The translations under genes were made by a program, and so were the position numbers. This document shows, piece after piece, positions 17,441 to 28,454 of a stretch of DNA of 64,000 nt. Under the pieces are notes generated by a model that did no database searches, was not told the origin of the DNA, and worked only from the letters and a program-made list of their open reading frames with translations. Numbering within the stretch: position 1 is the first letter of the stretch; each line of letters opens with the position of its first letter. The DNA lies in assembly GCA_014378465.1 (NCBI GenBank), contig JACMNQ010000065.1, forward strand, positions 5,186 to 69,185. Reading direction: 5' to 3'. The stretch comes from Oligoflexia bacterium (lineage in GTDB: Bacteria; Bdellovibrionota; UBA1018).

Positions 17441-18418
17441 ATGACGACAGCAACTGATTCACAGAACCCTTCCCATCTGGAAAACTCCGGCGATGCTCCC
17501 GAGCACCAGCCGAGCCTCGTCGAGCAGACTCTTCGAGAGCAGCGCGAATCCTGGCGCGAAATCTCTGAGCGCGTGTCCAGCATTTCAGGGCGTGAGCTCC
17601 CGCACGAATCTCCGAAGCGCATTCTGCTCTTTGGTCTCGGCAGCAGTCTCTTTGCGGCGCGACTTTCCGCTTTCGCGCTGATTCGCGAAAAAAGTCGGCA
17701 GCGCATCCCCGTGATCGCGTGCTCCAGCACTCGCATCGGCATCGACATCGTGCCTCAGCGTGGCGACTGGGCTTTCGCATTCACTCACCGCGGGGGAGCG
17801 GGTCCGACTCTTCAGGCGATGGAGCTCTGTGAAAAACTCGGCGCTTTCACCGTCATGGTCTGCGCTCAAGGCATTGAAGCTCCGGCCAGTGCAAGATTTC
17901 AGTTGCCCACGGTACCTTTGGAAAAAGTCGAACCCCACACTTCCGCCGTGACCGGCGCCATCTGCGCGGTGAGCACGCTTCTGCTCGGCAACAAGGCCGT
18001 CGAGGAATGGGACGCTCTTCGCAGTATCGGAACTCCTGATCTGGAACTCTACCGCAGACGCGCGGGGCTCGGGCCAACGATCCTCATCGGGGAGTGGGAA
18101 GGCGAATGGCTGGCACGCGAAGGCGCACTCAAAGTCATGGAAATGGCGCGACTCCCGATCCGCGCGTTCGGCAGCGAAGAATTCTTTCACGGCCCCCATT
18201 ACACGCTGACTCCTGAAGACCGCATCTGGCACATCTCCGTGCCGAAGGATCCCCGGAACGACACGATCGCGAAAATGAAACCTCATTATTCCATCGGCAT
18301 CTTCGGCGCGACTCCGCTTGCCTGGATCCCGGCTCTTGTCGAACTTCAGTGGCTGGCACTCGCCGTCGCGATCAACCGCGGAGTGGATCCGGATCTGAAA
18401 GCTCCGTCGGAAAGCTGA
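17441..18418 (+). CDS. SIS (sugar isomerase) domain protein
   Basis: Two SIS-like Rossmann segments (ILLFGLGSSLFAA ... FTVMVCAQG). Begins 5 nt after the M20 gene. Confidence 0.7.
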   Translation: MTTATDSQNPSHLENSGDAPEHQPSLVEQTLREQRESWREISERVSSISGRELPHESPKRILLFGLGSSLFAARLSAFALIREKSRQRIPVIACSSTRIGIDIVPQRGDWAFAFTHRGGAGPTLQAMELCEKLGAFTVMVCAQGIEAPASARFQLPTVPLEKVEPHTSAVTGAICAVSTLLLGNKAVEEWDALRSIGTPDLELYRRRAGLGPTILIGEWEGEWLAREGALKVMEMARLPIRAFGSEEFFHGPHYTLTPEDRIWHISVPKDPRNDTIAKMKPHYSIGIFGATPLAWIPALVELQWLALAVAINRGVDPDLKAPSES

Positions 18419-18452
18419 CTTGGAATGAAAAAAGCCCGGACTTGCGGCTTTC

Positions 18453-18839
18453 TCAGAAAAAGAAGGAGAACGCAAGCGGAGTGATGGCGACGGCGCCGAG
18501 GGCGCTGGATTCTGATCGGTTTCCCGCGGTGGCGGTGATGAAACCAATTTGTGGAGAAACATAGAAAGCGTTTTCGATGTTGTCGACATTGAAGAAGTTG
18601 AAAGTGGGTCCGACATTCAGGTTGAACGCCGATGCATTGATTGAGCCGGTCGCATAGGCCGCGGAAGTACTGAGCTGAATTGAAGAAGTGAGGAGGCGAG
18701 AGTACCCGATGCTGATCTTGAAAGTGGATTCGCCGCTCTGGAAAATCAGGCTCGAAGTGGTGCTGCCATCAAGCTCATTGAGCTGGCTCGTGGCCGCGTG
18801 TGATGCCCTTGACGCGTAGTTGCGGTATCTCCCATGGTG
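18453..18839 (-). pseudogene. truncated paralog of the adjacent outer-membrane beta-barrel gene (no start codon, no signal peptide)
   Basis: The minus-strand frame is open for 128 codons (HHGRYRNYASRASHAATSQLNELDGSTTSSLIFQSGESTFKISIGYSRLL...PLAFSFFF*). It aligns to residues ~30-184 of the 19030..19584 gene and ends in an OMP-like FFF. No ATG/GTG/TTG in frame, which explains its absence from the ORF track. Confidence 0.5.
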
Positions 18840-18899
18840 TCACACTTCGTTTCATTGCCAACTGAAAAGACCGATCAGAGGGAGCTCTCTGGAAACATT

Positions 18900-18948
18900 C
18901 AGTTTACTGGGGTAAGCGTACACGGTGTACGCTTACCCCAGTAAACTG
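18900..18948. repeat. 49-bp perfect palindrome (24-bp arms, single central G)
   Basis: cAGTTTACTGGGGTAAGCGTACAC g GTGTACGCTTACCCCAGTAAACTg. Lies between the intact OMP gene and its truncated paralog. Confidence 0.85.
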
Positions 18949-19003
18949 TACTTTTCTCAGGCCCCGTTCCGCGGTTGGGCCCGTTCAAATGTTGAGCCTC
19001 CCA

Positions 19004-19043
19004 TTCAAAGAAAGAACGCGATGGCGCGTTCAAAGAAAGAACG
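19004..19043. repeat. 15-bp direct repeat x2 (TTCAAAGAAAGAACG) spanning the OMP stop codon
   Basis: Copies at 19004-19018 and 19029-19043 separated by 10 bp. The second copy encodes the C-terminal ...TFFL* of the OMP. Confidence 0.7.
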
Positions 19044-19584
19044 TGAAGGCGAGTGGCACGACCGCGGTTCTCAGATCCGTATTGAAGTAATCGCTCGATG
19101 AGAAGCGTTCTGAGAGCGTGAGGTAAGGAGCGTATGACACTGAGTCATTCACGGCGAAGCGTTTTCCAAAAGTCAGAATGCCGCCGAAAGTGGCAGCCGA
19201 CGTCCGATTGCTCACTGCCACGAAATAAATCTGAGGGAGGAGAAAGAAGGCATTGCCAAGCCGGTCGGTGTCGGCAAAATTGAACGTGGGACCGGCTGCG
19301 AGAGTGAAGGATGTCGTCGTGTTCGACACCCCGGAAGAGCTGGACTTGACCGTACCTATCCCGAGATCGAAGTTGCCCGTCAGCTGAATGGACGGAGCGA
19401 CGAGCCGCGAATAACCCAGAGAAAAACCGAAAGCGGTATCGCCACTTTGAAAGACGAGTGAACTGCGCGAGCTGGCGTCGAGTTCATTGAGTTCGCCGAG
19501 TTCGCCGAGTTCAGCGGCACGTGCAGGGTTGCCGAACGCGAAGAGAGCAAGGAACAGGATGGTTCTCGAAGAAGTTTTCCTCAC
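19030..19584 (-). CDS. outer-membrane beta-barrel protein (small porin / OmpA-N-like)
   Basis: Signal peptide, alternating hydrophobic beta-strand pattern and C-terminal ...PLAFTFFL. The N-terminal (ELG)n segment is encoded by GAGTTCGCC repeats. Overlaps the rmuC start by 4 nt. Confidence 0.55.
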   Translation of the reverse strand: MRKTSSRTILFLALFAFGNPARAAELGELGELNELDASSRSSLVFQSGDTAFGFSLGYSRLVAPSIQLTGNFDLGIGTVKSSSSGVSNTTTSFTLAAGPTFNFADTDRLGNAFFLLPQIYFVAVSNRTSAATFGGILTFGKRFAVNDSVSYAPYLTLSERFSSSDYFNTDLRTAVVPLAFTFFL

Positions 19585-20927
19585 AGCGGAAATTTTTCCT
19601 GACCGCTCTGTGCACTGGGTTCAATCGTGTCTTCGCCCTTGGCTCTGGGTGGCGGGAGTTCCGCCGTCCCGTCCGCTCCTCCGAGTTCGGGAGGTTCACC
19701 TGCTTCACCGACGAGGCGGTACACACTGGATTCATATCTGCCGAGATGAGTGTTTGCCGTTTCGAAGGCTTCCTGCGCTTTCTTGAGGCCTTTTCCGATG
19801 TCTTCGAATTTGCGCTCAAAATGCTCGAAGTGGCGGCGAGCTTTTTTGATGTCGCCAATCGTCTTTTCAACTCCGCGGGACATGTCATAGTATTCCTGCG
19901 CCATCGTGACCGACCGAAGTCCCATGGCAAGCGTATTCGGAGAAACCGGATAGACTTTGAGTTTGGTGATGTCCTCAAAGAGTCTGCCGTTTCGAATCAC
20001 TTCAAAGTAGAGAATTTCGCTTGGGAGAAAAAGCATCGCCATGTCAGTCGTCCCGTGGTCCGGACGAATGTACTTGTCAGCGATGGACTTGGACTGAGTG
20101 CGGATGAAAGTTTCGAGCGCTTTTCGCGCGACTTCAAGCATCGCCGGATCCTGGGATTCGAACAGGGGGAGGACCTGTTCACGCGGAAACTTGCTGTCGA
20201 TCGGAAGGACCTGTCTGGCCATCTTGACGACGGCGTCCACTCGCTCCGGCGAGTTGGGTACGACCGCATACTGCAGCTCATACCCACCCGGAGGCAGAAA
20301 GTCCGCAAGCAGTCTTTCGAGAGTCGCTTCGCCGAAGCCCCCTCGCAGATGCGGGAGTTTCAGAAGACTGTTGAGATCTGAAATGGACTGACCCACCACG
20401 TTCAGGGACTGCAGCTTGAGTTCCGCCGCCTGAAGATGTTCCTGCACCTTTTCAAAATGCTTGAAGCCTTCCTTGAGATTCTCATTGAGCTTGGTCTCGA
20501 CACTCTTGCCGATGTTCTCGAGTCGCGTTCCGACCTGCAGCTCCAGGGACTGGAAACGACCTTGGAGCGCTTCGGTAGTCTTGAGGAGTCCGGTTTGCAG
20601 TTCGGACCTGCCTTGGGCGAGGGTCCGGTCGATCCGTTCCTGAGCTTCAAGAAAGTGTTTGTTCAGGCGTTCTGTCGTACTCTCACGGCTTTCTCCGACC
20701 ATACGAGTCATTCTTTCGGTCAGGTCGAGTATGGGCCCCTGCAGGGTGTGTCCCATCTGGCTCTGAAACGTCTGTCCCATGGATTCAATCATTTGAGCGA
20801 GCGAGGCTTCTGAAAGTCCGTTAAAACGGCCCTTCAGCCAGATGAACAGGAAGACGAGAGCGACAAGCGCCAGCCCGAGGCCAAACAGAATGATTTCGAT
20901 GAGGAACGCAGAGACGTCTGAATGCAT
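19581..20927 (-). CDS. rmuC: DNA recombination protein RmuC
   Basis: N-terminal TM helix, long coiled-coil region and conserved C-terminal RmuC core (...FLPSEILYFEV...PNTLAMGLRSV...). Confidence 0.85.
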   Translation of the reverse strand: MHSDVSAFLIEIILFGLGLALVALVFLFIWLKGRFNGLSEASLAQMIESMGQTFQSQMGHTLQGPILDLTERMTRMVGESRESTTERLNKHFLEAQERIDRTLAQGRSELQTGLLKTTEALQGRFQSLELQVGTRLENIGKSVETKLNENLKEGFKHFEKVQEHLQAAELKLQSLNVVGQSISDLNSLLKLPHLRGGFGEATLERLLADFLPPGGYELQYAVVPNSPERVDAVVKMARQVLPIDSKFPREQVLPLFESQDPAMLEVARKALETFIRTQSKSIADKYIRPDHGTTDMAMLFLPSEILYFEVIRNGRLFEDITKLKVYPVSPNTLAMGLRSVTMAQEYYDMSRGVEKTIGDIKKARRHFEHFERKFEDIGKGLKKAQEAFETANTHLGRYESSVYRLVGEAGEPPELGGADGTAELPPPRAKGEDTIEPSAQSGQEKFPL

Positions 20928-21664: not shown

Positions 21665-22640
21665 GTGACCGGACGGAAAGTCTTCTCCTTCCTCATCGTG
21701 GCGCTCTTTCTGTACATCGCTCCGCCACTTTTCATACCCGTGGCATTCGGGGCGATTTTCGCTGTGCTTTTCTTTCCTGCCTTTGAGTTCCTGCAGCGAA
21801 AAAAGGTGAAAAGCTCGTTTGCCGCAGCTCTGATCAGCCTGCTCGTCACTCACGTGTTTCTTCTGCCTTCAGCTCTTCTGCTCTTCGTCGGTGCACGGAC
21901 CGGGCTTCAGCAGCTCGGAGGCCTTCGAGATGTCCCGATCGTCAACCCTGGATCCGGAGGGGGAGCTGGACACCCGGGCTTCTTTGAAAATCTGGTCAAT
22001 ACTCCCGGTCTGCACGGGCTCTTCGTGAGCCTGTCGAAATCCTTTCCAGTCGAAGTCGAAGAGCTCGTTCACACGGCCAGCGACCTCGCCAAGGGAGTAT
22101 CGCTGCGTTTTGCCGATTTTCTCGGAGATCTAGTCACACGCCTCCCCGTCATGATCATGGGAATGGTGATCATGGTCCTGAGTACCCTACTTCTTTCTCG
22201 TCGATGGAAAACGACTCACTCAGTGTGTGCGCGCCAACTCAGTCTACGACTCAGTCCAGACTGAACGCCTGATTCGCGCTTTCGCCGGAATGTGCCGTTC
22301 CGTCATTCTGGCGACCGTGATTTCAGGCTTCGTGCAGGCCTCGATCTTTTCCCTCGTCTACATGGGGTTCGGATTGGGCAACGTCGGTCTCATCGCTTTC
22401 CTCGTCTTTCTCTGCTCTTTCATCCCACTGATCGTCGCCGCCTTCGTGGGCGTGATCGACAACTTCATCCGTCCCGCAGTGTTGCGCGGATCAGCGAACC
22501 TGCATCCGCTTCTGGCTTTCGTCGCGGCCTTTGGAGGACTTCAGGTCTTTGGCTTTTCGGGCGTGTTTCTGGGGCCGATCATCGCGGGGATGTTCGTCAT
22601 CACGGTCGAGAATCTCCTCAGCAAATCAGAGCCCGCCTGA
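21665..22640 (+). pseudogene. AI-2E family transporter (PerM/YhhT-like) interrupted by a +1 frameshift near 22180-22195
   Basis: ORF 21665..22264 encodes the N-terminal half. The 0-frame is open from 22182 (VPYFFLVDGKRL...) and continues to 22640. The two halves join cleanly if one C of the CCC run at 22185-22187 is removed. May be a sequencing error or a genuine pseudogene. Confidence 0.6.
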
Positions 22641-25357: not shown

Positions 25358-27295
25358 TTGACACAAGGTGCTGATCTTGATTCAATTCTGTCCATGGTAA
25401 AAAAAGCGGACAGCAAAGCTGCAGCAAAAAAAGCAGCACCCAAAGCCTCATCCACTCCTTCAGCAAAGGGAGGCGCGGCTTCAGAAACGAAAGGCGCCAA
25501 GGCTTCTCCAAAATCTGCTGGTTCTGCTGCCAAAAAGACTGCAGATGCCGACACGGATGCTCCGGTACGGGCTTCCAAAGCTTCGAAGTCGATCACGACA
25601 TCGAGCACTGCCGAGTACTTCTCGAAGAATCTTCAGCAAGTTGGATTCTCTTCACAGGTCAAAGCGGTTCTCACGACGCTCAAGGAAGCCGTCGATAATG
25701 CCCTGGACGCCTGCGAAGAACATGGTTTTTTGCCTGAAGTTGAAATCTGGGTCGAAAAGATCGGCGCAGGCTCCCTCAAGAATTCAGATCAGGTTCGCAT
25801 CCGAGTTCTCGACAACGGTCCGGGCATTGATCCGGATGACGTTCCCAAAGTTTTCGGCGAATACCTCGCTTCTTCAAAGTTCGGTCGCGGGCGCTGTTCA
25901 CGTGGACAGCAGGGGATCGGGATTTCCGCGGCCACCACCTGGGCGCAGTTGACCAATGCCACTGGGGCTCGAGTCATCACCAAGACTCCGAAGATGCGCA
26001 AGGCGATGTCCTGCACCGTCGAAGTGGACATCAAGCACAACAAAGGCGTGTTGAAAGACCGCGAGATGATTGAATGGGACCGCGAAAACGGAACATCGGT
26101 CGAGTTCGTGATCGATGGACGCATTCAGCTGAACGGCGAAGCCGGCCTCATCAACTACCTCACGGGCACCACGCTCGTGAATCCGCATCTCACTCTCCAT
26201 TCCAATCTTCCGGATCTCGGTCGTCAGACCGTGGAACGAGTGACTCAGGAAATCCCCGCGATCCCTGAAGCCGTCGAACCTCATCCTCACACGATGAAGC
26301 TGGGTGAATTCATTGCGCACTCCCATCTCTTCGGACGTGTGAAAGTCGGAGCCTGGCTCAAGAAGGGCTTCTCCCGCGTGAACGAAGGCACTCTCAAGGA
26401 CCTCGTCAAAGCGGGCATCAAGGCTTCACTCCTTGAAAAGTCGGTCGATGGAATGAATGAAGTCGAGTTCAAAGACCTCTTCACGAAGATCCAGAACATT
26501 CAGCTCATGGCGCCTTCCACGAAGTCAGTTCTCTCAATCGGTGAAGAAGCCCTCGCCAAGAGCATCAAGCGTCTGGGCGCAGTCGACTTCTTCGCAGTCG
26601 TGACCCGCAAGCCGACCATCTGCGATTTCAAACCCGTCGAAGTCGAAGTGGCGGTGGCCCGACTCGAAGACCGCGCGATGGAAGCGGACGCTCCCGTGCA
26701 GGTTCTTCGTTTCGCCAACCGCGTGCCGCTTCAGTTCGACAAGGCAGCCTGCGCGATCGTGCAGGCCCTGACTTCAGTGAACTGGAGAGCGTACGGAATC
26801 TCGCAGCCGAAGGAAGCTCTGCCTCAGGGTCCGTACATCATCGCGGTCAGCGTGGTGTCGCCTTTCATCAAATTCAAGAACGCCTCCAAGGAAACGGTCG
26901 ATGCTTCGGACGAACTGGTCGAAGAGATTCGCCGTGCGCTGATCCAGGCGGGACAACGCCTTTCCAAGCACATCCGCAAGGAAGACAAAGCGAATGATCT
27001 GGAAGAAAAACTTCGCCACATCGAGCAGTTCTGTCCAATTCTGGTCGATGGACTCTGCAGAATCACCGAAGCCAGCGAGGCTCGCAAGAAGCGCGCGGAA
27101 GATGGACTGGTCAAACTTCTCGGACGGGACACTCGCGTCGCGGAACAGGAACTTGCCCATGCTCATGTCTCTCTCGAAAAAATGACCGCCGCTGAAAATG
27201 CGGACCCTTCGCTGGCCGGCACCAAAAAAGGTTCAGGCAAGAAAAACGCAGAGAAAAAGAAGTCCTCCAAAAAAGAAGCTGTAGCAGCGGAGTAG
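25358..27295 (+). CDS. top6B: type IIB DNA topoisomerase VI subunit B (GHKL/Bergerat ATPase) with Lys/Ala-rich N- and C-terminal tails
   Basis: Bergerat-fold motifs EAVDNALDA (N-box), VLDNGPGI (G1) and GRCSRGQQGIGISAA (G2), then a transducer region. The track start at 25358 is TTG; the ATG at 25394 (MVKKADSK...) is more likely. N-tail AAKKAAPKASSTPSAKGG..., C-tail KKGSGKKNAEKKKSSKKE. Confidence 0.8.
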   Translation: MTQGADLDSILSMVKKADSKAAAKKAAPKASSTPSAKGGAASETKGAKASPKSAGSAAKKTADADTDAPVRASKASKSITTSSTAEYFSKNLQQVGFSSQVKAVLTTLKEAVDNALDACEEHGFLPEVEIWVEKIGAGSLKNSDQVRIRVLDNGPGIDPDDVPKVFGEYLASSKFGRGRCSRGQQGIGISAATTWAQLTNATGARVITKTPKMRKAMSCTVEVDIKHNKGVLKDREMIEWDRENGTSVEFVIDGRIQLNGEAGLINYLTGTTLVNPHLTLHSNLPDLGRQTVERVTQEIPAIPEAVEPHPHTMKLGEFIAHSHLFGRVKVGAWLKKGFSRVNEGTLKDLVKAGIKASLLEKSVDGMNEVEFKDLFTKIQNIQLMAPSTKSVLSIGEEALAKSIKRLGAVDFFAVVTRKPTICDFKPVEVEVAVARLEDRAMEADAPVQVLRFANRVPLQFDKAACAIVQALTSVNWRAYGISQPKEALPQGPYIIAVSVVSPFIKFKNASKETVDASDELVEEIRRALIQAGQRLSKHIRKEDKANDLEEKLRHIEQFCPILVDGLCRITEASEARKKRAEDGLVKLLGRDTRVAEQELAHAHVSLEKMTAAENADPSLAGTKKGSGKKNAEKKKSSKKEAVAAE

Positions 27296-27305
27296 GAAGC
27301 ATCAC

Positions 27306-28454
27306 ATGGCAATCAGACCCGATCAGGAAATTCCCAAACTCAGCAAGGAACTCTGCAACAAGCTCCTGTTGGATCTTGAAAAAGCGAAACGTCCGGTCCT
27401 CTATGCGACCAAATGCTCGCTCGACAACGCGCTTTACAATCACAAGGTGGGGTACCTCACTCCCGGACCGAAGAAAGTGGCCACTGAACTGAACGTCAGT
27501 TCGGTGAAGAAGATGTCGCGCGCGATCTTCATGCTTGAGATCATCCTGCGCAACATTGACAGCGGTGGTGTGAACACGAAGCGCGAGTTGTACTACATGA
27601 GCAAGGGTGAAATTAAGCACAATTCGATCCTGAAGCCTCTCGACTTCGGCGATCAGGATGAATCTGATGGAACCATCGATTTCATCTGCGAGCTCCTTGA
27701 ATGTTACCGCGAGGACCTGAACTGTTACGCAAATGACCGAGGCGGTCAGACTTACTCCCAGCAGCTCGTCGTGACGGAAACCCTCCCGGATGGTGACACT
27801 GCCGTCATCGATCTCGGAAAGCTCGGAACGACTCCGTTTCAGCCCAAAAATCGTCCCCAGAATCTCAAGCTCAAAGCGAAGGAAAAGATCGATTTTTGCC
27901 TGATCGTCGAGTCCGAAGGTACAGCCAACACTCTGGTCGCCAATGGATTCACGAAACGCCATCCCTCGATCCTGATGGGTGCGCAGGGCGTTCCATCCAA
28001 TGCGGTTCGCGGTTGGTGCAAGCTGATTCAGGATCAGCTCAATATCCCGCTCTATTTCTTCGGCGATCTGGATGCGTACACGATGCAGAACATCTTTCGC
28101 ACGCTCAAGGCCGGCTCTGCCGCGTCCCTGATCCGAAATTCCGATTACTCCGCGCCGGATGTCAGATTTCTTGGGGTTTTGCCTGAAGACATCAAGAAGT
28201 ACGACTTGCTCGATTATCCCGTGAAGGAAAACGACGCGCAGGAAGTCCGCGCACTCAAGAAGGCGCAGGATGCTCTCAAAAACGATCCCTTCTTTCAAGA
28301 CAAGCGCAACAAAGGCCTCACCGAGATCCTCAACTGGCTCCTCAAGAACAAAAGACGTTGTGAGCAGCAGGCTTTCTTCACCGTCAATCCTCGTGATCCC
28401 CAGATGCCTGAGAAGATCATCATGGAGAAGATCAAAGCCGGGAAATTCGTCTGA
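27306..28454 (+). CDS. top6A: type IIB DNA topoisomerase VI subunit A (Spo11/Top6A; 5Y-CAP + Toprim)
   Basis: Catalytic-tyrosine motif RELYYMS, Toprim acidic motifs LIVESEG and FFGDLDAY. Begins 8 nt after top6B, the same B-then-A order as the archaeal operon. Confidence 0.8.
   Translation: MAIRPDQEIPKLSKELCNKLLLDLEKAKRPVLYATKCSLDNALYNHKVGYLTPGPKKVATELNVSSVKKMSRAIFMLEIILRNIDSGGVNTKRELYYMSKGEIKHNSILKPLDFGDQDESDGTIDFICELLECYREDLNCYANDRGGQTYSQQLVVTETLPDGDTAVIDLGKLGTTPFQPKNRPQNLKLKAKEKIDFCLIVESEGTANTLVANGFTKRHPSILMGAQGVPSNAVRGWCKLIQDQLNIPLYFFGDLDAYTMQNIFRTLKAGSAASLIRNSDYSAPDVRFLGVLPEDIKKYDLLDYPVKENDAQEVRALKKAQDALKNDPFFQDKRNKGLTEILNWLLKNKRRCEQQAFFTVNPRDPQMPEKIIMEKIKAGKFV

Follow-up and report, generated by a model that had tools for sequence, protein, structure and literature searches.

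A start-less, internally shortened paralogue beside an intact gene for a small outer-membrane β-barrel protein of an Oligoflexia genome is probably a young pseudogene

Two members of a family of small outer-membrane proteins lie in tandem on the minus strand of the window (the whole 64-kb stretch of DNA that was analysed), between rmuC and a convergent SIS-domain gene. The upstream member is designated OMP1 and the downstream member copy 2. The host is an uncultured predatory-type bacterium, represented by an environmental Oligoflexia/Bacteriovoracaceae-like metagenome-assembled genome (MAG). The features of the locus are as follows.

17441–18418, plus strand: convergent SIS-domain gene (Pfam SIS), which abuts rmuC directly in relatives.
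18428–18454, minus strand: weak hairpin followed by a U-run, a possible residual terminator (fold −9.8 kcal/mol, z −0.85, not significant).
18453–18839, minus strand: copy 2, what probably remains of a second member of the family, with 128 codons and a TGA stop. Still present are a c-region-like YASRA, LNELD, strands 1–5, strand 6/8 in fused form and the terminal PLAFSFFF; a start codon, the n and h regions of the signal peptide and profile positions 134–163 (GKRF...P) are missing.
18840–18854, minus strand: two in-frame TGA codons closing the copy 2 frame on its 5' side (18854–18852 and 18842–18840).
18901–18947, no strand assigned: perfect 23+23-nt palindrome between OMP1 and copy 2 (terminator scan; −43.7 kcal/mol, z −10.9).
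19004–19051, minus strand: 25-nt tandem duplication of the OMP1 3' end with its stop (TRF period 25, 1.9 copies, 91% match).
19014–19031, minus strand: terminator-like hairpin and T-rich run at the junction of the 25-nt duplication (terminator scan; −9.8 kcal/mol, z −2.0).
19030–19584, minus strand: OMP1, intact 184-aa small outer-membrane β-barrel protein (open reading frame, signal peptide, β-signal).
19478–19513, minus strand: in-frame 9-nt tandem repeat within OMP1, encoding ELG-ELG-ELN-ELD (TRF period 9, 2.7 copies, 100% match).
19581–20927, minus strand: rmuC, 448 aa (Pfam RmuC, E = 4.8e-45).

OMP1 is the working gene of the pair. Its product, identical to the NCBI protein H7222_13795 of the MAG, carries a typical Sec signal peptide (MRKTSSRTILFLALFAFGNPARA, then AE) and ends in the aromatic β-signal PLAFTFFL, to which PLAFSFFF corresponds in copy 2. 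The AF2 model of OMP1 (pLDDT 84.8) has eight antiparallel strands, and a Foldseek search with this model retrieves the OmpA TM domain, OmpX, NspA and OmpW (1bxw, 1qj9, 1p4t and 2f1t) with E-values from 4e-5 to 1e-3. OMP1 resembles these eight-stranded barrels (PF13505, MBB clan) in its signal peptide, strand count and β-signal, but differs from them in that its match to PF13505 (OMP_b-brl) stays below the Pfam gathering score (17.4 versus 28.7 bits) and its family has motifs of its own; copy 2 differs further in having only six predicted strands. The TGA stop codon of rmuC overlaps the GTG start codon of OMP1 in a GTGA tetranucleotide (ccgctGTGAgg at 19581–19584), and OMP1 is probably translationally coupled to rmuC via this overlap. 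At the site of the 9-nt repeat of OMP1, copy 2 has a single QLNELD. The 25-nt duplication at the 3' end of OMP1 reads LAFTFFL and stop, followed one base out of frame by RAIAFFL and stop.

The family to which both copies belong is marked by the motifs LNE(L/I)(D/E)xSS, GPTFNF, NAFF, GKRF..Y.P and PLAFSF(L)F. Its members are annotated only as 'hypothetical protein' and come mostly from metagenomes and from one Bdellovibrionales MAG; 11 of 30 match PF13505. Neither OMP1 nor copy 2 has an NCBIfam match, a sequence search of the PDB with the family profile gives no meaningful match, and a word-indexed protein search with OMP1 finds only the MAG's own protein. OMP1 itself is the sole high-scoring match in a profile search of 1.84 billion representatives, in which copy 2 does not figure as a called CDS. 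A search for related loci in GTDB genomes and JGI metagenomes yields no confirmed relative, and no orthologous locus with the OMP pair occurs in the databases searched. Another metagenome contains two intact members of the family in tandem (L050, 244–756 and 898–1443), each of which has its signal peptide and covers the whole profile.

The copy 2 frame extends over 128 sense codons from 18839 to 18456 on the minus strand and ends with a TGA stop at 18455–18453, its translation being HHGRYRNYASRASHAATSQLNELDGSTTSSLIFQSGESTFKISIGYSRLL...AITPLAFSFFF. An earlier note on this DNA had described it as a minus-strand OMP homologue with an FFF terminus of outer-membrane type, devoid of ATG, GTG and TTG codons and of a signal peptide, and abutted on its 5' side by an in-frame stop. 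Each of these points is borne out: the homology by translation and BLASTP (E = 4e-27), the terminus by the final PLAFSFFF, the absence of start codons by the codon list over 18839–18456, the stop by the TGA at 18842–18840 directly 5' of the frame together with a second one at 18854–18852, and the missing signal peptide by translations of the adjoining frames. No hydrophobic signal peptide precedes LNELD in the copy 2 frame, and in every frame adjoining copy 2 the n and h regions are missing, the c-region-like YASRA alone being kept. Beyond the two TGA codons the frame is open up to 18932 and reads ...SKLNVSRELPLIGLFSWQ. Upstream of copy 2 there is neither an RBS-like sequence nor a promoter-like site. 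A frameshift rescue from the ATG at 18856 (MKRSVTPWEIPQ...) was considered and rejected, since no frame contains a hydrophobic core up to YASRA.

OMP1 and copy 2 share 39% identity over 122 aa, well above chance and in accordance with the earlier note's description of a diverged paralogue, and a tblastn search of the window recovers the match between them (E = 1e-23) and no further family match below E = 0.1, so that the window has one truncated copy only. In a neighbour-joining tree of the family they are sister taxa. Within this diffuse family of 160–200-aa outer-membrane proteins, no other member is closer to either copy than the two are to each other. The nucleotide alignment of the two copies, which the earlier note had proposed as a check, gives about 55% identity throughout, and the longest identical run is 8 nt in register and 10 nt at any register. 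Identity is highest at the second codon position (71%), lower at the first (58%) and lowest at the third (35%), the pattern left by purifying selection on both copies; with pN at 0.35 and pS saturated at 0.77, the duplication is ancient. The membrane strands of the two proteins have diverged as much as the loops.

The earlier note had raised the possibility that copy 2 is a silent cassette of a gene-conversion-based antigenic-variation system. In this reading copy 2 would be a promoterless donor for RecA-type gene conversion into OMP1, by which an antigenic surface or a prey or phage receptor would vary. Copy 2 does superficially resemble the silent copies of Neisseria pilE/pilS, Borrelia vlsE/vls and Anaplasma msp2 in being a start-less, promoterless, 5'-truncated paralogue beside OMP1, directly downstream and in the same orientation, and the locus pairs an intact gene of the expressed type with a silent copy that has neither promoter nor start. 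Its retained codons are undecayed, and the differences between the copies include predicted loops, for example a 9-aa gap at OMP1 residues 81–89. The known gene-conversion systems, however, depend on conserved tracts common to the donor and the expression site (PMC4534519), and with about 55% DNA identity and such short identical runs the two copies offer no substrate for recombination. Unlike pilE/pilS, vlsE/vls and msp2 (PMC4534519), the locus has no shared tracts, no archive of donors, no cis elements and a donor without core segments: copy 2 is single within the 64 kb, the locus has neither a G4 motif nor a simple-sequence tract nor direct repeats at its flanks, the repeats present being the 25-nt duplication at the OMP1 end and the unique palindrome, and the surrounding 10 kb or so contain no recombinase gene. 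In addition, differences in the strands are as large as in the loops, the lack of two strands and of GKRF...P leaves copy 2 without a complete barrel to donate, and the organism, known from an environmental MAG, faces no adaptive immune system that it would have to evade. Two assemblies of the locus, probably from one read set, differ by single SNPs and show no mosaic tract. The cassette proposal is therefore abandoned here as extremely unlikely.

On the family HMM, copy 2 matches positions 23–133 and 164–175 (E = 5e-31). The gap between them covers the 30 profile positions 134–163, or about 37 aa; it preserves the reading frame, and on either side of it copy 2 follows the family profile cleanly. 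Projected onto the OMP1 model, it removes half of strand 6, strand 7 and the start of strand 8, and it takes in G140, K141, R142 and P153, each of which is at least 90% conserved in 30 family members. OMP1 has eight strands including the nearly invariant GKRF...P hairpin, whereas copy 2 lacks the hairpin and has six predicted strands. The AF2 model of copy 2 has a pLDDT of 87.7, and no PDB entry matches this six-stranded model at E ≤ 0.001; a six-stranded product would have no counterpart among solved monomeric membrane barrels. Among the 75 family hits, no member that retains both ends is without the GKRF hairpin.

The 108 codons of the retained part show no excess divergence, internal stop or frameshift. 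Against a family HMM from which the window sequences had been left out, copy 2 reaches 88.4 bits, compared with 74.2 for the same region of OMP1 and 67.8 ± 13.5 for intact family members in leave-one-out scoring, and its identity to 28 outgroups is 31.6%, that of OMP1 being 29.7%; because copy 2 was part of the profile used to collect the family set, it looks more typical of the family than it otherwise would. GC3 of copy 2 is 0.66, in line with host genes. Among mononucleotide shuffles of its 381 nt, just 1.3% remain open, and the stop-free frame bounds neutral divergence loosely, since the probability of staying open is 0.56 at 5% divergence and 0.32 at 10%. Since the retained codons are as typical of the family as those of intact members and contain no stop, copy 2 was probably inactivated recently relative to the duplication. 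Two to three independent lesions with neither an internal stop nor a frameshift need either such a recent inactivation or some residual constraint.

In another reading, copy 2 would be expressed conditionally or unconventionally and act as a six-stranded module, being switched on through phase variation, through stop-codon read-through or through the gain of a 5' end in a rearrangement, such as the site-specific shuffling of promoter plus signal peptide of the Mycoplasma vsa type. The silent vsa-type genes of Mycoplasma have no promoter, start codon or signal peptide (PMC4534519), and copy 2 resembles those of Mycoplasma pulmonis vsa and M. agalactiae vpma in missing just these parts. A hydrophobic LPLIGLFSW stretch and a GTG at 18923 lie upstream of both TGA codons in the copy 2 frame, the loss of an even number of strands leaves the C-terminal β-signal in frame, the six-stranded AF2 model is a confident one, and the retained codons are well conserved. 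In contrast to vsa and vpma, which encode repeat lipoproteins rather than a barrel and lie in invertible orientation, OMP1 and copy 2 are arranged as direct copies, so that a site-specific exchange would delete OMP1; the junctions between signal peptide and mature protein have no recombination site in common, 17 of 24 nt being identical around LNELD, and no recombinase or invertase gene is found among the open reading frames at 8.5–28.5 kb of the window.

As to phase variation, the Opa proteins of Neisseria are eight-stranded barrels that are phase-varied by CTCTT repeats in the region coding for the signal peptide. The likeness to Opa is that of a small eight-stranded surface barrel with the signal-peptide region of one copy out of frame or absent; unlike opa genes, copy 2 has no pentamer or homopolymer tract at its 5' end, and from 18300 to 19700 there is no homopolymer of at least 7 nt and no simple repeat of at least 4 copies apart from the in-frame 9-nt array of OMP1. 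Recoding of TGA was rejected, because TGA is the true stop of rmuC, of OMP1 and of copy 2 itself. Also against a six-stranded module are the presence of the hairpin in every one of the 75 family hits that keeps both ends and the lack of a solved membrane barrel matching the model. Taken together, conditional or unconventional expression of copy 2 is very unlikely.

The lesions could also be an artefact of assembly or binning, in which a chimeric metagenome join hides a real genome with an intact second gene. The sequence does come from a MAG, and a second broken gene, an AI-2E transporter frameshifted near 22190 in both assemblies, lies about 2.6 kb away. A Logan contig from run SRR9661224, however, contains copy 2 with identical damage, both the 5' lesion and the internal gap, and over 6.4 kb the two assemblies, made by different assemblers and probably from the same read set, differ by 4 SNPs and no indels. 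One of these SNPs is synonymous in OMP1 and one changes F to S in copy 2. The gene calls of the Logan contig leave copy 2 out. Moreover, exact matches between the paralogues never exceed 10 nt, too little for the two to collapse in a k-mer graph, and the internal loss is in frame and has clean flanks against the family profile. An artefact is accordingly judged very unlikely, and the broken transporter gene indicates that gene inactivation is unexceptional in this genome.

The surroundings of the pair differ from those in relatives. Orthologues of rmuC with 60–80% identity occur in Bacteriovoracaceae/Oligoflexia MAGs, and among 46 related loci the junction between rmuC and the SIS gene contains no family member, the exceptions being one weak match (L044, E = 1e-4) and an unrelated-looking small OMP (L027). 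The earlier note had named an intact second OMP gene with its own start, at the homologous position in relatives, as a refuting condition; relatives carry no OMP gene whatever there. Since rmuC lies directly next to the SIS gene in relatives, the comparison of gene order indicates that the OMP pair was inserted in this lineage specifically, at a variable junction where insertions differ between relatives. A role of rmuC in a variation system was considered and rejected, since the neighbours of rmuC are unchanged in relatives without an OMP gene. Recent horizontal acquisition of the pair was likewise rejected, as neither copy departs from the flanking genes in GC or GC3, leaving no composition signal.

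The palindrome between the copies may serve to block or terminate transcription or to bind a protein. It is unique in the window, and a half-site search finds no exact match in JGI metagenome contigs, so that no evidence favours a dispersed element; an Rfam search of 18300–19700 returns only hairpin-shaped miRNA noise on the palindrome. The hairpin at the OMP1 stop and the 23-bp arms of the palindrome together suggest that read-through from rmuC–OMP1 into copy 2 is probably low. The weak hairpin at 18428–18454 follows directly after the copy 2 stop, between copy 2 and the convergent SIS gene.

These observations lead to the interpretation that copy 2 is, with good probability, a non-functional relic, or pseudogene, of a once-intact second gene in a tandem pair encoding eight-stranded outer-membrane proteins. 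An ancestral tandem pair of small eight-stranded OMP genes would have diverged for a long time under purifying selection, and copy 2 would later have lost its start, the n and h regions of its signal peptide and, in frame, about 37 aa. With neither a start nor a Sec signal, its product would be neither made nor exported. Copy 2 combines homology to the family with lesions that preclude a product, as pseudogenes do. Relaxed constraint, a further mark of pseudogenes, is not seen in the remaining sequence, which is compatible with a pseudogene only if inactivation was recent. Copy 2 resembles the ordinary pseudogenes of tandem paralogues, which decay with a bias to deletion, in its lost start, its nonsense codons, its deletion and its intact neighbouring paralogue; it differs from them in that its surviving codons show no measurable decay, which implies that a very old paralogue became a pseudogene only very recently. 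The alternative offered by the earlier note, a decaying tandem duplicate, is accordingly right as to kind, a disabled paralogue, and wrong as to timing, since pS is saturated and the surviving part is undecayed.

A copy kept by selection, either as a six-stranded module or as a reservoir that needs no long homology (through capture of a 5' end, templated repair or low-level TGA read-through from the hydrophobic stretch upstream), would account for 108 family-typical codons and for a two-strand loss that keeps the β-signal in frame, but is very improbable. If true, it would be an undescribed use of partial barrel genes, and nothing here requires such a reading.

If copy 2 is a pseudogene, 18453–18839 should be annotated as such. 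The locus illustrates that a start-less paralogue beside a surface-protein gene does not amount to an antigenic-variation cassette unless nucleotide tracts are shared between the two. It also identifies the junction between rmuC and the SIS gene as a variable insertion point in this lineage and, through OMP1 and its relatives, defines an uncharacterised family of small outer-membrane proteins with the signature LNELD...GPTFNF...GKRF...PLAFSFLF.

The minus-strand frame downstream of OMP1, here called copy 2, reads HHGRYRNYASRASHAATSQLNELDGS...PLAFSFFF and is homologous to OMP1, an intact gene for a small outer-membrane protein (BLASTP E-value of 4e-27, 39% identity over 122 residues). The elements of the locus are as follows.

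19581-20927, minus strand: rmuC, adjoining OMP1
19030-19584, minus strand: OMP1, a 184-aa ORF, the next gene after rmuC
19004-19051: 25-nt tandem duplication (1.9 copies, 91% match) spanning the final codons of OMP1 and its stop
19014-19031: terminator-like hairpin made by the junction of the 25-nt duplication
18901-18947: perfect 23+23-nt palindrome between OMP1 and copy 2 (dG -43.7 kcal/mol, z -10.9)
18839-18456, minus strand, with TGA at 18455-18453: copy 2, 128 sense codons, downstream of OMP1

The earlier note had described copy 2 as an OMP1 homologue lacking a start codon and a signal peptide and preceded by an in-frame stop, and this is confirmed as written: the frame contains no ATG, GTG or TTG, a TGA (18842-18840) lies directly 5' of it with another at 18854-18852, and no signal peptide is found ahead of LNELD. 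No further match to either copy was found across the 64 kb. The Logan assembly of run SRR9661224 matches the entire locus except for four substitutions and shows no indels; one substitution is synonymous in OMP1 and one changes F to S in copy 2. It is very improbable that copy 2 is an assembly artefact.

OMP1 is predicted to be a divergent small outer-membrane barrel, because AlphaFold2 modelling on the family alignment gives an eight-stranded sheet (pLDDT 84.8) that Foldseek groups with the OmpA transmembrane domain, OmpX, NspA, OmpW and Ail. It has a typical N-terminal signal peptide, MRKTSSRTILFLALFAFGNPARA before AE, and ends in PLAFTFFL. Its match to PF13505 (OMP_b-brl) is below threshold, and NCBIfam and PDB sequence searches gave no result. 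A profile of OMP1 and copy 2 searched against 1.84 billion representative proteins yielded 75 matches at E <= 1e-3, nearly all of 160-200 residues, with a best non-self E-value of 8e-18. The aligned family has in common a signal peptide, the motifs (L)NE(L/I)(D/E)xSS, GYS, GPTFNF, NAFF and a nearly invariant GKRF...Y.P, and the terminus PLAFSF(L)F; PF13505 is touched by 11 of 30 members. The ten closest members checked are unnamed or annotated as 'hypothetical protein' and come mostly from metagenomes, one being from a Bdellovibrionales MAG. After the signal peptide of OMP1, an in-frame 9-nt tandem repeat (19478-19513) encodes ELG-ELG-ELN-ELD, of which copy 2 has one unit; slippage there could alter length with the frame unchanged.

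Copy 2 has lost parts of this barrel. Against a family HMM from which the window sequences were left out, it matches positions 23-133 and 164-175 and skips 134-163 (GKRF...P), and the pairwise alignment places the gap at OMP1 residues of about 138-174, so that on the OMP1 model the missing part runs from the middle of strand 6 through strand 7 into the beginning of strand 8. AlphaFold2 predicts six strands for what is left, and a search with that model matched no PDB entry at E <= 0.001; that copy 2 is a six-strand module expressed conditionally or by an unconventional route is quite unlikely. On its 5' side, copy 2 retains a cleavage-site-like YASRA, comparable to that of the family member P0009 (...SYAARAESQLNEIE), with no adjoining n- or h-region found. 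The ATG at 18856 was rejected as a signal-peptide start, its frame having 26 non-hydrophobic codons. Upstream of both TGAs, the copy 2 frame is open to 18932 and reads ...SKLNVSRELPLIGLFSWQ; a GTG at 18923 falls within the palindrome. Conjecturally, this open stretch may be what remains of an earlier N-terminus shut by nonsense mutations.

The paralogue looks old and its surviving codons well kept. From LNELD on, identity between OMP1 and copy 2 is 58%, 71% and 35% at the three codon positions, and pS is 0.77 (saturated) against a pN of 0.35. Neutral evolution of copy 2 over even half of this divergence time would have brought identity at the second position down to about 45% or less. Because the observed value exceeds this expectation, purifying selection acted on both lineages over most of their history. 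Copy 2 is on average 31.6% identical to 28 outgroups and OMP1 29.7%, and the retained region scores 88.4 bits and 74.2 bits, respectively, with intact members at 67.8 +/- 13.5 (leave-one-out); copy 2 thus seems no further from the family than OMP1, in a family set retrieved with a profile containing copy 2. Its GC3 of 0.66 equals that of the neighbouring genes. Under simulated neutral substitution, the frame stays open with a probability of 0.56 at 5% divergence and 0.32 at 10%. Of the decaying tandem duplicate proposed earlier, the disabled duplicate therefore stands and the decay of its surviving codons does not, the family fit being as good as that of OMP1.

The other proposal, that copy 2 is a silent cassette for gene conversion into OMP1, is hardly credible. 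Such systems need conserved tracts common to donor and expression site and usually hold many donors, with silent pilS copies lacking promoter and RBS (PMC4534519). Copy 2 resembles them as a start-less neighbour, but the nucleotide-level alignment called for in the earlier note gives an identity of about 55%, with a longest identical run of 8 nt in register and 10 nt at any register; moreover, the 64 kb hold one copy rather than an array of donors, a search for a G4 motif, homopolymer or simple-repeat tract found none, and the window shows no mosaic difference from the Logan assembly. A vsa-type exchange of 5' ends also lacks support: the copies have no shared site and lie in direct orientation, with no recombinase between 8.5 and 28.5 kb. 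The GTG start of OMP1 overlaps the TGA stop of rmuC as GTGA (19581-19584), which suggests that translation of an outer-membrane protein gene is coupled to that of a DNA-recombination gene. The adjacency of this 'recombination' gene to the pair is incidental, because relatives keep the order FA-hydroxylase, rmuC, SIS, M20 peptidase without any OMP. Despite the overlap here, rmuC and OMP1 are unlinked in relatives.

The 25-nt duplication encodes 'LAFTFFL*' and then an out-of-frame 'RAIAFFL*'. The palindrome has no second copy in the 64 kb and no exact match in JGI metagenome contigs, and could serve as a terminator or operator or be the scar of a recombination event. A weak hairpin with a U-run follows the copy 2 stop. 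Since hairpins lie between the copies and no sigma-70-like site was found upstream of copy 2, transcription into it is likely to be low. Elsewhere in the window, genes for subunits B and A of topoisomerase VI (Topo-VIb_trans, TP6A_N/Toprim) lie at 25358-28454 and are also present in the relatives L002 and L005; this enzyme is uncommon in bacteria.

RmuC orthologues at 60-80% identity occur commonly among Bacteriovoracaceae/Oligoflexia MAGs, in which the junction downstream of rmuC (loci L002-L047) is a hot spot of lineage-specific insertions. At about a dozen of these loci the convergent SIS-domain gene lies directly beside rmuC, some 70-350 nt away as counted from the conserved core; others carry differing inserts of 0.5-4.5 kb whose cargo is unrelated, including a cysteine-rich secreted protein (L027, L042) and an aminotransferase-like gene (L030, L040, L045). 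Small OMP-like ORFs occur there in L027 (7139-7723) and L044 (7573-8142). Because none of the 46 loci has this family at the junction (L044 gives a weak match, and the small OMP of L027 looks unrelated), the pair is a lineage-specific occupant of a variable site.

An intact tandem pair of the family exists on a JGI contig (L050, metagenome 3300063180; 244-756 and 898-1443), the two being 38% identical, each with a signal peptide; its 141-nt spacer holds a terminator-like hairpin. The contig of P0007 may carry another (188 aa and 185 aa). A neighbour-joining tree pairs OMP1 with copy 2 as sisters, on branches of similar length. The best-supported reading, given good confidence, is that copy 2 is an old tandem paralogue that has only recently become a pseudogene. 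Its surviving codons are pristine, the one mildly odd feature, and recent inactivation explains this. An AI-2E family transporter gene (21665-22625, plus strand), 2.6 kb from the pair, shows that gene breakage occurs in this genome: it is frameshifted near 22190, where tblastn with a 342-aa orthologue passes from frame 2 to 3, is split alike in the window and the Logan contig (gene calls of 199 + 137 aa), and is probably a second pseudogene. Copy 2 would once have been the second member of a tandem OMP pair, an old paralogue that was then disabled recently, a finding that is real but ordinary.
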